From a virus (lineage: Duplodnaviria > Heunggongvirae > Uroviricota > Caudoviricetes), in the IMG/VR virus record IMGVR_UViG_2541047758_000009: a stretch of DNA of 4,359 nucleotides; one strand, 5' to 3'. The notes beneath the pieces were generated by a model that saw nothing but the letters and a program-made list of their open reading frames with translations, did not search any database and had not been told where the DNA came from. The position numbers were made by a program, and so were the translations under genes. This document shows positions 1-4,359 of this stretch, one piece after another (position 1 is the first letter of the stretch; every line of letters starts with the position of its first letter).

Positions 1-519
1 CTGCGCCTCATCCGTAAACAGCGATTCTTTTTCGCCATGCGCATCCACCCAGGCATCGCAGAGTTCCTCATACATCATGAAAAGCTGCGATGAGATACGG
101 GCAGCAAACTTTTTCAGCTCCTTGTCATTCATTCCCGGTAGGCGCGCATAGTGGTCACGCTCTGCCAGAAACAGCAACGACGCGTCGGTGTTCATTTCAT
201 GGCGCTGATTCACACGCTCAATGCGCGGCCATAAACGACGCTGAAAAGTGGATGTGAGGAAATAAAACCCGTGCACCGGGCTTTTATTGCGCCGGATGTA
301 GTCATAGCGTGAAGTAAACAGCGAGCGCAAAAAGTAAGGCAGGCGGTTAATCGTGGATAAAACACCTTGCACCTGACGCATCTCGTCACGTGTAAGAGGT
401 CTTTCTCGCCCGACGGCCTCACGTGGCGCGTTCCATGCATAAGCACCGGTAAACGTCTTACCGGTGCCTGCGGCAAATGCTGACGAAGGGACAAAACGCC
501 CGGAGGCTTTAACGGCCAT
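1..519 (-). CDS. A: Replication initiation endonuclease, P2 gpA-like; N-terminal 173 codons only, gene continues beyond the window start
   Basis: Minus-strand frame is open from ATG at 519..517 to position 1 with no stop; it is absent from the ORF track only because it is truncated by the window edge. My translation begins MAVKASGRFVPSSAFAAGTGKTFTGAYAWNAPREAVGRERPLTRDEMRQVQGVLSTINRLPYFLRSLFTSRYDYIRRNKSPVHGFYFL..., which I recognise as the N-terminus of P2-type A protein. Its position downstream of B and the small early ORFs matches P2 gene order. The start overlaps the stop of the upstream ORF by 11 nt. Confidence 0.85.
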   Translation of the reverse strand, partial: MAVKASGRFVPSSAFAAGTGKTFTGAYAWNAPREAVGRERPLTRDEMRQVQGVLSTINRLPYFLRSLFTSRYDYIRRNKSPVHGFYFLTSTFQRRLWPRIERVNQRHEMNTDASLLFLAERDHYARLPGMNDKELKKFAARISSQLFMMYEELCDAWVDAHGEKESLFTDEAQ

Positions 520-784: not shown

Positions 785-1005
785 GCCATTCTCCGGTAAT
801 GTTTGTTTTTTGCTTCAAAGACTGACTGACAGGAAACACAACGCGTGGCTGACGGATAGGCCGCACGACGGGCAGCAGGTATTGGCGCATCACACTCTTC
901 GCAAACCAACGCAGAAACACCGCAATGTTTTACCCTTGCCGCGTTAATCTGGCGCTCCAGTAATTCAGCCTGTTGTTCCTGAATAAAATCCACGTTGTCC
1001 GGCAT
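781..1005 (-). CDS. TraR/DksA-family C4-type zinc-finger protein, 74 aa
   Basis: ORF track 781..1005. The protein contains CEEC-(17 aa)-CVSC, i.e. the C-x2-C-x17-C-x2-C spacing of the DksA/TraR C4 zinc finger. ATG at 1005..1003 is preceded by AAGGAG with a 6-nt spacer. The stop TAA of the upstream ORF overlaps this ATG as TAATG. Hand-counted GC is about 50%. Confidence 0.85.
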   Translation of the reverse strand: MPDNVDFIQEQQAELLERQINAARVKHCGVSALVCEECDAPIPAARRAAYPSATRCVSCQSVFEAKNKHYRRMA

Positions 1006-1295
1006 TACCAGCTCCTTTTGTCGTTCAGTTTCTTAAATTCATCAGCGCAATAGCTGGCGATTTCTGTCGTTAATTTTGTCAGTTCATCCACGGATGAAAT
1101 TTGCTTATGAAATACAGCGCGTTTAACAAGTAAATTAACCACATCAGACAGGAGATTTAATTTATCCGCATAAATGGCTATAGTTGATTCCACCATATCC
1201 CCAGTGTTTTTATCGCGTTTAATATCAGCTAGCGACAAATCACCATTTTTCATGACTGAAATCTTCAGCCAGTTATTAAGCAATATATTTTTCAT
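1005..1295 (-). CDS. Hypothetical protein, 96 aa, low GC, unrecognised family
   Basis: ORF track 1005..1295. ATG at 1295..1293 overlaps the stop of the upstream ORF as ATGA, so it is translationally coupled inside the operon. Hand-counted GC is about 36% against about 50% for flanking genes. Predicted helical and fairly acidic; no hydrophobic segment long enough to span a membrane and no motif I can name. Confidence 0.6.
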   Translation of the reverse strand: MKNILLNNWLKISVMKNGDLSLADIKRDKNTGDMVESTIAIYADKLNLLSDVVNLLVKRAVFHKQISSVDELTKLTTEIASYCADEFKKLNDKRSW

Positions 1296-1537
1296 TCGCT
1301 ATATGCTCTCTCCGCAGAATCAATCATTTCCCGGCCATTATCGGTAATACAGAAACCTTCTCTTGATTTGGTCACAAGCCCCCATTTCCCCATTGCTATA
1401 AATGCTTTTTCCACACGACTAGGACAGGAGCGGAAGACATCGCTTGAAGGATGTAGTGGAGTCTTGTCATCTAATTTTTTAAGTAATGAAAGTTGATAAT
1501 CTGTTAAGCGTTTCCTGAACCATTTTGTATTTGTCAT
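1292..1537 (-). CDS. Hypothetical protein, 81 aa, low GC, unrecognised family
   Basis: ORF track gives 1292..1543 with a TTG start. I prefer the first ATG at 1537..1535, which is preceded by AGGAAA with a 7-nt spacer. Product starts MTNTKWFRKRLTDYQLSLLKKL...; the N-terminus is basic. Hand-counted GC is about 40%. Stop TGA at 1292..1294 overlaps the next start. Confidence 0.6.
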   Translation of the reverse strand: MTNTKWFRKRLTDYQLSLLKKLDDKTPLHPSSDVFRSCPSRVEKAFIAMGKWGLVTKSREGFCITDNGREMIDSAERAYSE

Positions 1538-1551
1538 CTCCAACTTTCCTG

Positions 1552-1764
1552 TTATTTATTGAGTCCTAGATTATGGAATTTGGCAGATTCCTGACTGAGC
1601 AACTCGACTATCTCCACGCGGGATAACTCCGCCTTTGTGATGTGGCGAATCATGGCGTCAAGATGAGAAGAGAAGCGCGTCGCTGCGTCGGCCTGTGCTT
1701 CGGTTCTGGCCTGTTGCAGCAGTAATGCGTATTTACCGCACTGATTTTCAGAAACTGTATGCAT
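1552..1764 (-). CDS. Small early protein of unknown function, 70 aa, at the P2 orf80 position downstream of B
   Basis: ORF track gives 1552..1797 with a TTG start. The ATG at 1764..1762 is preceded by GGAG with a 6-nt spacer and is the more credible start ([15 protein letters not shown]...). It is separated from B by a 63-bp spacer that contains a small hairpin. Confidence 0.65.
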
Positions 1765-1827
1765 GACTTTCTCCAGGCAAAAAGAAGCCCCGCACAATTA
1801 AGTGCGTTAAAAACTCTGGTTAATTAC

Positions 1828-2328
1828 TTAATGCAGATATTGCTCTGGTTTTACCGACGTCAGAATTGTCGGTGCATACTCAAACAGACTGAATAATTCA
1901 CGTAATGCACGGAATAAAGCATCACGCCAGTAACATGATTCTTCATTAATTCGCCAGTATGGCTGGTTAAATTCTTTTTCTGTCAGTCGTGCGTGCATAA
2001 ATAAAGTGCGACGCTGACTGACGGTTAAAAAACTAATATATGCATACTCACTTGCGCCAACCTGACGGCGTTTTGAGAATGCCCCACGCAATTCATCAAT
2101 TGCACATACCAGTCGTTCACGTTCGACATCATTCATTTCTTCAAAACGCATCGTTGCGTGACGCTGTTTTAACTGAGCATGGAAGCAAACCGTTAGTCGT
2201 TCGCGCTCCATCATCTGATTATAATAATCGCATGTCTCCTGCCAGCGAGGGACGGCCAGATGCTTACCAATTATCCGGCGCATAGTTGCTGGCTGTTTTT
2301 CAACGAGATTGAGCGTCATCACTGTCAT
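1828..2328 (-). CDS. B: Phage replication protein, P2 gpB-like, 166 aa
   Basis: ORF track 1828..2334 (MEMTVMTL...). The second ATG at 2328..2326 has GGAGG 8 nt upstream, whereas the first ATG has only a 2-nt spacer, and it forms an ATGA overlap with the stop of the upstream small ORF. The resulting 166 aa and its position between cox/orf78 and the small ORFs preceding A match P2 gene B as I recall it. Homology is recognised by reading, not verified by search. Confidence 0.75.
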   Translation of the reverse strand: MTVMTLNLVEKQPATMRRIIGKHLAVPRWQETCDYYNQMMERERLTVCFHAQLKQRHATMRFEEMNDVERERLVCAIDELRGAFSKRRQVGASEYAYISFLTVSQRRTLFMHARLTEKEFNQPYWRINEESCYWRDALFRALRELFSLFEYAPTILTSVKPEQYLH

Positions 2329-2495
2329 TTCCATACCCTCCGGCTTTTCAGAAAGGTCAGAGCCTTTTTTAACGGACTCTGTTTTTTGGTGCGGATAATG
2401 ATTCCCTTACGCCCCTTACCGTGGGTGATGGTGAAGTCAATCGCCCTGGGGCTTTCGTTACGCAATAACTGAGCAATACAACGAGGCTCGTTCAT
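2325..2495 (-). CDS. Small basic protein, 56 aa, at the P2 orf78 position between cox and B
   Basis: ORF track lists a longer ORF 2325..2615 that overlaps the cox 3' end in another frame. The internal ATG at 2495..2493 lies 10 nt after the cox stop TAA (2506..2508), inside TAAGGTGGAAAGGATG, which provides an SD. The product MNEPRCIAQLLRNESPRAIDFTITHGKGRKGIIIRTKKQSPLKKALTFLKSRRVWK is strongly basic. Stop TGA overlaps the B start as ATGA. Confidence 0.5.
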   Translation of the reverse strand: MNEPRCIAQLLRNESPRAIDFTITHGKGRKGIIIRTKKQSPLKKALTFLKSRRVWK

Positions 2496-2877: not shown

Positions 2878-2970
2878 AAGATTTGCGATTCACCAACTGG
2901 AGCCATCTAGAGCCTTTTTGAGTGAATCGCAAATTGCCAAGTAACAATATAATTGGAGATTAGCAAAATT
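2878..2970. promoter_or_regulatory. Divergent immunity switch region between cox and C, expected to hold the early and lysogenic promoters and the operator sites
   Basis: 93-bp intergenic spacer between divergent regulatory genes. It contains a perfect 13-bp inverted repeat, a central TCTAGA palindrome (2906..2911) and an AT-rich block with TATAAT at 2948..2953. TTGCGA, a -35-like hexamer, sits in each repeat arm pointing inward, consistent with face-to-face promoters. Exact promoter positions cannot be fixed from sequence alone. Confidence 0.5.
2881..2934. repeat. Perfect 13-bp inverted repeat, ATTTGCGATTCAC (2881..2893) and GTGAATCGCAAAT (2922..2934), separated by 28 bp
   Basis: Read directly from the sequence: the two arms are exact reverse complements. 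They are the only copies of this 13-mer in the window. Candidate operator pair or RNA stem. Confidence 0.9.
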
Positions 2971-3270
2971 ATGTCAAGTGAACAAAGTGAAAAACTAAAG
3001 CTCATCCGTGAATCCGAACGCCTTAAAACTAAGGAACTTGCTGAATTAATTGGAATTAATTACTACACATATCATGGATATGAATCAGGAAAATCAAAAA
3101 TGCCTATGGAAGCAGGTATGAAGCTGTTTAAGCATCCACGCTTTCGCAAGTATCGTGACTGGTTCATGTTTGATGAAACAGATCCAGCAGCTGGACAAAT
3201 AGCCCCGGCTCTCGCACACATTGGGCAAGACTCAACAACCTTGCACCACTCAGACCAAAAGACTGGCTGA
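2971..3270 (+). CDS. C: Immunity repressor, P2 C-type, 99 aa, helix-turn-helix
   Basis: ORF track gives 2953..3270 from a TTG. I prefer the ATG at 2971, which gives 99 aa and has GGAG at 2955..2958. The N-terminal region has an Xre-like HTH (TKELAELIGINYYTYHGYESGK). The C-terminal AGQIAPALAHIGQDSTTLHHSDQKTG matches the P2 C repressor tail as I recall it. It lies directly upstream of and co-oriented with int, as in P2. Confidence 0.85.
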   Translation: MSSEQSEKLKLIRESERLKTKELAELIGINYYTYHGYESGKSKMPMEAGMKLFKHPRFRKYRDWFMFDETDPAAGQIAPALAHIGQDSTTLHHSDQKTG

Positions 3271-3363: not shown

Positions 3364-4359
3364 ATGTCTATTAAAAAGCTCGATGATGGTCGTTATGAAG
3401 TGGACGTCAGACCGCAGGGTGCAGATGGAAAACGTATCAGGCGGAAATTTAAAACTAAAGGTGAAGCTCAAGCATTCGAACGTCATGTCCTGGTTAACTA
3501 CCACAACAAAGAGTGGTTGGAGAAGCCGGCCGACCGCCGAACTCTTACAGAGTTGTTAGGCAGATGGTGGATATATCACGGAAAATCACATGAGCGTGGA
3601 GATATTGAACGAGGGCGTTTGACGACAATAATCGCCAAATTTGCCGAGATGGGAGTGTCCAGGGCGGACCAGCTAACAAAGAAAACGATAACTGATTATC
3701 GCGTTGTAATGATGAACGATGGCCTAAAACCAGCCAGCGTAAATCGGCATCTGGCAATAATGAGCGGGATGTTCACCAAGTTAATTGACGCCGGTGAATA
3801 TCACTCTCACAACCCGTTCCGTGAGGTTAAGCGGTTACGTGAAGCTGTTACGGAAATGGCTTTTTTGTCCAGTGAAGAGATTACGCGGCTGTTATCCATG
3901 CTTGATGGTGATGAGTTAAATGCAACTCTGGTCTGCCTTTCTACTGGTGGACGCTGGAGTGAAGTGTCTAATTTGAAAGCTGAACACATCATTAACCAGA
4001 TGGTTACGTTTATGAAAACTAAAAACGGAAAGCGCAGGACAATTCCCGTTTCGCAGGACCTGATTAAACGGATCAAGACCAAAAATTCAGGCAGGCTTTT
4101 TAATGCCAGTTACTACAAAGTGCGCAACGCTCTCAGGGAAGTAAAACCCGATTTACCTGACGGACAGGCAGTGCATGTTTTGAGGCATACATTTGCCACA
4201 CATTTTATAATGAATGGAGGTAACATAATCACATTGCAGCGCATCCTGGGTCATTCTAACATTCAGCAAACTATGACCTACGCACACTTTGCACCGGATT
4301 TCTTACAAGATGCTGTGACTCTTAACCCGGTGTCAAGAATGTCCATAATGCGTCCATAA
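3364..4359 (+). CDS. int: Tyrosine site-specific integrase, P2 Int-like, 331 aa, complete
   Basis: ORF track 3364..4359. GGAGG lies 5 nt upstream of the ATG. The N-terminus MSIKKLDDGRYEVDVRPQGADGKRIRRKFKTKGEAQAFE is typical of P2-family integrases. The C-terminal catalytic signature is present: LSTGGRWSE (Arg), HVLRHTFATH (His-x-x-Arg ... His) and TMTYAHFAP (nucleophilic Tyr). Stop TAA occupies 4357..4359, the last bases of the window. Confidence 0.95.
   Translation: MSIKKLDDGRYEVDVRPQGADGKRIRRKFKTKGEAQAFERHVLVNYHNKEWLEKPADRRTLTELLGRWWIYHGKSHERGDIERGRLTTIIAKFAEMGVSRADQLTKKTITDYRVVMMNDGLKPASVNRHLAIMSGMFTKLIDAGEYHSHNPFREVKRLREAVTEMAFLSSEEITRLLSMLDGDELNATLVCLSTGGRWSEVSNLKAEHIINQMVTFMKTKNGKRRTIPVSQDLIKRIKTKNSGRLFNASYYKVRNALREVKPDLPDGQAVHVLRHTFATHFIMNGGNIITLQRILGHSNIQQTMTYAHFAPDFLQDAVTLNPVSRMSIMRP

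Follow-up and report, generated by a model that had tools for sequence, protein, structure and literature searches.

The early replication operon of bacteriophage P2 carries four open reading frames (ORFs), orf80 to orf83, between genes B and A (AF063097 annotation). The locus studied here carries five, which raises the question of which one is additional, how it arrived and what its product might do. The locus lies in a 4359-bp stretch of the viral record IMGVR_UViG_2541047758_000009, called the window throughout, and corresponds to the end of a P2-like (Peduovirus) prophage that holds its regulatory and early-replication genes, int–C–cox–B–A. An interpretation made from the letters alone (the sequence-only reading) had counted the same four and five ORFs and proposed that two coupled ORFs of 81 and 96 amino acids (aa), together spanning positions 1005 to 1537, form an acquired two-gene cassette of low guanine-plus-cytosine content (GC). 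The analysis divides this pair. We consider it reasonably probable that the 96-aa ORF is the resident gene orf81 and that the 81-aa ORF is a rare accessory gene, probably encoding a DNA-binding winged helix-turn-helix (wHTH) protein, which arrived on a recombinant patch and is expressed early from the promoter Pe.

Both ORFs are on the minus strand, and their coordinates and junctions are as the sequence-only reading described them: the 81-aa ORF stops within an ATGA that also holds the start of the 96-aa ORF (1295-1292), and the latter ends in a TAATG shared with the start of the TraR-like gene orf82 (1007-1003). The 81-aa ORF starts with an ATG at 1537, leaving a gap of 14 nucleotides (nt) to orf80. 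An alternative TTG at 1543, two codons further upstream, is a less likely start because an AGGA stands 9 nt upstream of the ATG. Base composition was likewise read correctly for the genes in question, with computed GC of 40.2% for the 81-aa ORF, 35.7% for the 96-aa ORF and 50.2% for the TraR-like gene, but the figure of about 50% given for the rest of the operon was too high (B 44.0%, cox 46.0%, orf78 48.0%, orf80-like gene 48.4%; whole window 45.4%). Windowed GC showed the dip over the two ORFs and also that it is not unique, the C/operator region being equally AT-rich and falling to 33% at 2901-3100.

By alignment and profile match, the 96-aa ORF is the resident P2 core early gene orf81. Its product matches the DUF5405 profile PF17399 over the full model (positions 1-88 of 88; 94.7 bits, cut-off 21.6), and its nucleotide identity to P2 orf81 is 81% overall and ~97% from codon ~45 onward. 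Its place between orf80 (DUF2732) and orf82 (TraR-like) is the same in the window and in P2, and orf81 occupies that position in P2 and in all 75 of 75 matching phage records. The low GC is native and no sign of acquisition, since P2 orf81 itself has a GC of 37.3%. A horizontally acquired cassette of both ORFs would explain their shared low GC and translational coupling, and it is true that the first ~44 codons of orf81 are inherited along with the extra gene. Yet the 3' half of the 96-aa ORF is ~97% identical to P2, and a core position in P2 and in all 75 records, with similar composition, is what the sequence-only reading had itself named as evidence against acquisition; the proposal is rejected for ORF 1005-1295, and as an account of the pair it is very improbable. 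Neither product had been assigned to a nameable family in that reading, which was mistaken for the 96-aa ORF, a homologue of P2 Orf81; the 81-aa ORF has no Pfam family, and its PHROG, phrog_11056, is unannotated. Database names for orf81 disagree ('hypothetical', 'replication initiation protein', 'minor tail protein', 'DUF5405 family protein') and do not count as evidence of function; where DUF5405 is labelled 'replication initiation protein', the label was transferred automatically and is unverified. A comparison of the DUF5405 profile with the PDB found nothing.

A three-way alignment of the window, P2 and Yersinia phage vB_YpM_115 delimits the segment that does differ. This patch has a GC of 37.5% and measures 426 bp where P2 has 193 bp, which lengthens the locus by 233 bp, and the distance from the orf80 start to the A start is 1245 bp with the module and 1012 bp in the P2 form. 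Both flanks of the patch are ~97-98% identical to P2. The patch begins near codon 60 of orf80, ends near codon 45 of the 96-aa ORF (codon ~49 of P2 orf81) and comprises the last ~10 codons of orf80, the 14-nt spacer, the entire 81-aa ORF and the diverged first ~44 codons of orf81. The differing unit is thus one whole gene with only parts of its two neighbours, rather than a two-gene cassette; orf80 to orf83 are core, AT-rich orf81 included, and the fixed 426-bp module is accessory.

The breakpoints are the same in 19 of 19 carriers compared (the window and 18 other loci), at P2 locus positions ~3430-3433 and 3624. Among 79 IMG/VR relatives Orf81 has one of two N-terminal forms only: the extra gene accompanies every 96-aa form and is missing beside every 100-aa form, the one that P2 has. 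The orf81 5' allele, like the extra ORF, is present in 54 complete Escherichia coli genomes, and every match was annotated as adjoining the other gene. Because the flanks are diverged and the breakpoints fixed, we infer one homologous-recombination event rather than a clean insertion. The pattern indicates as donor a more distant P2-like relative that already carried orf80-X-orf81, where X is the extra gene, and the patch has spread since then via its conserved flanks, being present now in phages of several C/cox immunity types. A tie between the module and one immunity (C/cox) type was considered and rejected: the module is enriched in types resembling that of the window (cox_win-like) and not exclusive to them, and the same types also occur without it.

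Alignment of the B-to-A interval across relatives, a check that the sequence-only reading had suggested, singles out ORF 1292-1537 as the variably present one, and by this comparison it is a fifth, extra gene, real but rare, that P2 lacks. The module was found in 54 of 5426 complete E. coli genomes (56 places). The P2-type segment formed by the orf81 3' part and orf82 occurs in 1603 of them (1839 places), so the module accompanies about 3%; the claim that at least one ORF was acquired stands, with about 97% of P2-type E. coli operons and P2 itself lacking this gene. Two of the 75 phage records that match the interval carry the module, both of them isolated plaque-forming Yersinia pestis phages, and the module is therefore compatible with lytic growth. 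Among IMG/VR relatives of Orf80 (356), it is present in 19 of the 80 closest. The identical 81-aa protein stands on at least 1000 contigs, and nearly every source names it 'hypothetical protein'.

The protein family is tiny, with five clusters among 5.8e9 clustered proteins. An exhaustive scan of 1.84e9 representatives returned one convincing distant relative and a profile search raised the total to eight; those searches turned up two types only, that of Escherichia and a single one of Lelliottia, and no informative annotated homologue. The database proteins P0004-P0006 (41, 59 and 66 aa) are frameshift fragments of copies from Escherichia albertii. The distant relative, 74 aa long and 45% identical, belongs to Lelliottia-type P2-like prophages, in which carriers have the order B, DUF2732, X, DUF5405 (orf83-like), A, with X again directly after the DUF2732 gene. 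X is present in one of 79 IMG/VR loci of the Lelliottia clade, where the default order is DUF2732, DUF5405, A. The Lelliottia-type gene is AT-rich too (35-36% GC against 42-54% in its neighbours), and the ratio of nonsynonymous to synonymous substitution rates (dN/dS) between two of its variants is 0.22, which points to purifying selection. A 45%-identical homologue at the same junction together with this ratio shows the 81-aa ORF to be a real, constrained gene.

This placement could suggest an accessory role in replication, with the winged helix acting at or near the P2 origin, or with gpA, gpB or Orf81, to aid rolling-circle initiation. In both clades the gene always lies between B and A, beside DUF2732 and DUF5405 genes, it is co-inherited with a specific Orf81 N-terminal allele, and many replication initiators and their helpers contain winged helices. 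Nevertheless, P2 and about 97% of P2-type operons replicate without the 81-aa gene, one recombination event with fixed breakpoints suffices to explain in full the linkage to an Orf81 allele, and the Lelliottia-type carriers lack orf81 altogether. The labels that connect DUF5405 with replication initiation are unverified, the same gene being a 'minor tail protein' elsewhere, and we regard a replication role as improbable.

The product of the 81-aa ORF matches phrog_11056 from end to end (E=1e-59). AlphaFold2 (AF2) models it as a winged helix, with helices at residues 13-24, 33-37, 39-51 and 66-80, a bridge at 27 and a hairpin at 55-64 (predicted local distance difference test score, pLDDT, 82.8); the predicted topology, H1-S1-H2-H3-S2-wing-S3, is that of a winged helix-turn-helix. 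The Lelliottia homologue is modelled with the same topology (pLDDT 71.4). Sub-threshold profile matches over residues 40-80 all fall to winged-helix families (HTH_45, wHTH-PRTase-associated, S19e, SSO2273 and a MotA-like PHROG). Sequence searches of the PDB with the single protein and with the profile gave nothing significant (E about 1), and NCBIfam gave S19e only (E=0.021); the name 'ribosomal protein S19E', used by one source, was rejected as a spurious transfer of the wHTH motif.

Conservation is seen in the hydrophobic core, in an H2-turn-H3 motif F35-R36-S/T-C38-P39-S40-x-V42-x-K44-A45 and in a basic N-terminal arm. The isoelectric point (pI) is 9.3-9.8, and in both subfamilies the arm has a net charge of +4 and the putative recognition helix one of +2. 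The models suggest that the product is a minimal winged helix-turn-helix, small and basic, and the combination of fold, charge and conserved helix-turn-helix (HTH) face makes nucleic-acid binding most likely, with a specific site on DNA as the probable target. Two cysteines are invariant between the 45%-identical subfamilies and may have redox or metal relevance: C38, with which the putative recognition helix begins, and C63 in a wing strand.

Regarding expression, a simple sigma-70 consensus scan of positions 900-1900 found no promoter-like site on either strand, and no terminator was found flanking the 81-aa ORF. Neither Rfam matches nor unusual RNA structures were found in or beside the module. 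In P2, the C repressor shuts off the Pe early operon in lysogens. The lack of a promoter-like site and of a flanking terminator, with the ATGA overlap into orf81, argues for Pe-driven lytic expression, in which transcription of the 81-aa gene would start at Pe and read through the terminator between B and orf80, and its translation would be coupled with that of orf81-orf82-orf83-A. The protein would then act early in lytic growth and not in the repressed prophage, presumably as a dispensable modulator of early transcription, of replication or of phage-host conflict. Superinfection exclusion or lysogenic conversion would be unlikely, since expression appears to be early and lytic and the operon is shut off in lysogens; exclusion exerted from the prophage state is disfavoured.

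Several observations weigh against a DNA-binding protein of early lytic growth. The alignments behind the AF2 models are very shallow, and confident models were obtained in two of five cases for the E. coli protein. No Pfam wHTH model reaches its cut-off (PF24409, 15.5 against 27; PF14947, 14.4 against 25.5). The E. coli type has a basic wing and the Lelliottia type an acidic one, so wing-DNA contacts would not be conserved. No module-specific operator-like repeat was found in or beside the module and no DNA target or partner was identified; winged helices can also be protein-binding modules, and the N-terminal domain (NTD) of T4 MotA is among the best structural matches. The promoter scan was such that a weak or activator-dependent promoter could escape it. 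Finally, the E. albertii copies are frameshifted, leaving ORFs of 68 and 59 aa (L003:5995-6247 and L018:3228-3471), and in one prophage the winged-helix gene is interrupted near codon 12 by an IS1 (768 bp, with a 9-bp target duplication and an InsB-like ORF; L014:2874-3641); given such frameshifted and disrupted copies, the gene is dispensable for prophage carriage.

Coordinates of the features of the window are collected below.

Features of the 4359-bp window, in order of position, with the evidence for each
Feature	Position	Strand	Evidence or remark
Replication initiator gene A, 5' part (nicking protein), runs off the window	1..519	-	phrog_91 'nicking at origin of replication', E=8e-48
P2 orf83 homologue, second DUF5405 paralogue, 91 aa	509..784	-	PF17399, 51.8 bits; phrog_154
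P2 orf82 homologue, TraR/DksA-type zinc finger, 74 aa	781..1005	-	PF01258, E=2.4e-11; phrog_54
P2 orf81 homologue (DUF5405), 96 aa	1005..1295	-	PF17399, 94.7 bits
Recombinant patch relative to P2	about 1163..1588		alignment and windowed identity
Accessory gene, 81-aa basic predicted winged-helix protein	1292..1537	-	phrog_11056; no Pfam family
Shine-Dalgarno-like AGGA	1547..1550	-	9 nt upstream of ATG 1537; read from sequence: AACAGGAAAGTTGGAGATG
P2 orf80 homologue (DUF2732), 70 aa	1552..1764	-	PF10809, E=2e-9; phrog_128; alignment to P2 Orf80
Stem-loop and T-run between B and orf80	1791..1806	-	terminator-like-site scan; sequence identical to P2
P2 gene B homologue (replication, lagging-strand synthesis)	1828..2334	-	phrog_235, E=3e-104; P2 annotation
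orf78	2325-2495	-	
Cox-family gene, 123 aa	2506-2877	-	Phage_Cox match
C repressor	about 2971-3270	+	
Integrase	3364-4359	+	

The part of gene A in the window is near-identical to P2 gpA, homologues of the window B protein match PF26815 (Phage_RepB), and the stem-loop after B corresponds to a putative rho-independent terminator in the P2 annotation. Two plus-strand antisense ORFs (1174-1347 and 1368-1496) were dropped as having no family matches; an antisense ORF in the Lelliottia-type loci covers another stretch and looks unrelated to them. Otherwise near-identical early operons have several Cox/C immunity types. The Cox-family protein of the window (phrog_1831) has 123 aa against 91 aa in P2, owing to an extra N-terminal segment of ~30 residues. 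A perfect 13-bp inverted repeat, ATTTGCGATTCAC at 2881-2893 and GTGAATCGCAAAT at 2922-2934, its arms separated by 28 bp, is found between cox and C, where P2 has Pe, Pc and its operators; in the window, whose immunity type is not that of P2, it probably serves as the operator pair. The annotated O1 and O2 sites of P2 are listed on one strand only. Yersinia phage vB_YpM_115 has two extra small ORFs, one per strand, between its cox-like gene and orf78 (L002:5109-5474) that the window lacks, and the cox-orf78 gap is another variable spot of the int-to-A region.

Other P2-like loci carry different genes in the B-to-A interval. A PAPS-reductase-domain gene of 315 aa (PF01507, phrog_424) occupies the exact wHTH junction, after DUF2732 and before DUF5405, in two loci (L120:270-1214 and L127:2739-3683). 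Between orf83 and A, a 272-aa TGT/DpdA-like protein (L026:3877-4695; also in L027 and probably in L068) matches phrog_887 'queuine tRNA-ribosyltransferase' (E=9e-87) and may be 7-deazaguanine DNA-modification cargo; L026 and L027 carry the winged-helix gene as well. One P2-like viral contig has a C5 cytosine DNA methylase (PF00145) in the gap that separates its orf83-like gene from A (L111:2975-3841). In another locus a deletion fuses orf82 at codon ~46 to A at codon ~82 (L089:3029-3434), with loss of orf83 and of the A start, and that prophage is presumably defective.

Such neighbours bear on the idea that the 81-aa gene is itself early counter-defence or inter-element conflict cargo, for instance an inhibitor or regulator directed against a host restriction or defence system or a P4-like satellite, and that its junction is a minor cargo slot of the early operon. 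DNA-modification cargo does occur in the same interval of other P2-like phages, in a 2026 survey (PMC13586616) the stretch between integrase and primase accounts for 8% of P2 defence systems, and the gene itself is AT-rich, infrequent, patchy and of narrow distribution. All of this is an argument from location, however: PADLOC gave no defence-profile match for either wHTH homologue at E<=1, the junction in the E. coli clade has essentially two states, the P2 form or the wHTH form, unlike a hypervariable hotspot, and a basic wHTH is atypical of DNA-mimic or enzyme-type anti-defence proteins. A conflict role seems to us unlikely, if not negligibly so.

No functional data came to light in the literature about P2 orf80-83 or about the Yersinia phages that carry the module, and the small B-to-A genes have no demonstrated function in the annotations and profile libraries examined. 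As matters stand, the accessory gene adds one more uncharacterised small phage protein, predicted to bind DNA. P2-like prophages occur in about 30% of complete E. coli genomes (1603/5426), and their early replication operon occasionally carries in-operon cargo, apart from the well-known old/tin and Z/fun hotspots. Should the 81-aa protein be a regulator or a counter-defence factor, phages with and without the module would form a natural plus/minus pair for early P2 biology, because their flanks are ~97-98% identical. It is doubtful that the protein represents a new kind of early phage effector, whether a minimal factor directed at RNA polymerase or sigma or a counter-defence or anti-satellite regulator, in a previously undescribed in-operon cargo slot at the DUF2732/DUF5405 junction.

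Compared with P2 Orf81 (PF17399; phrog_265), the 96-aa product is ~100% identical in its C-terminal half and its gene is similarly low in GC (35.7% in the window, 37.3% in P2). It differs in length, 96 aa against 100 aa in P2, and in its first ~44 residues, a second allele, roughly 55% identical by eye, that occurs only alongside the extra gene. The published hotspots of P2 are gpA-gpQ (old/tin), Z/fun, and tail-to-cI or int-att, none of them at the DUF2732/DUF5405 junction. In contrast to a classical phage moron, the 81-aa gene has no promoter of its own and no flanking terminator that we could find, and it is fitted into the operon by a 14-nt gap and an ATGA overlap. The P2 Cox and 186 Apl regulators are small DNA-binding proteins of the same Pe operon, as the 81-aa product is predicted to be. 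It has no sequence or profile similarity to them; Phage_Cox matches the 123-aa protein instead. Membership of phrog_11056 gives no mechanistic information, the family having neither function nor description. Another comparison is with the MarR/PadR/ArsR-type wHTH DNA-binding domains, from which the protein differs in its length of only 81 aa, in lacking the N- and C-terminal dimerisation helices of MarR, and in having no known ligand pocket or operator. Assignment to MarR was rejected on this basis: about 140 aa with terminal dimer helices would be expected, and here one short post-wing helix follows in 81 aa, shorter still in the 74-aa homologue.

The closest structural parallel is the NTD of T4 MotA, likewise a phage early protein and the best PDB match of the 81-aa model in Foldseek (template-modelling score 0.74, 24% identity). 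There is also a weak match to the MotA-like phrog_1345 (E=0.0034) in the helix-wing region, residues 42-80, whereas hhalign gave 58.8% over 27 columns only and BLASTP was not significant. The likeness allows the winged helix to be seen as a protein-binding module, a MotA-NTD-like factor that would dock on sigma70 or RNA polymerase, possibly with the TraR-like Orf82, and redirect host transcription early in infection. The charges are opposite, with a pI of 9.3 for the 81-aa protein and 5.3 for MotA, which argues against the same sigma70 interface; moreover, the ORF lacks the C-terminal domain of MotA that binds the MotA box, its downstream gene being orf81, and the window encodes no AsiA-type partner. 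We regard a transcription-redirecting factor of this kind as rather unlikely. The models place the 81-aa protein instead as an uncharacterised small phage winged-helix protein of a familiar kind, apparently a member of neither the MarR nor the MotA family.
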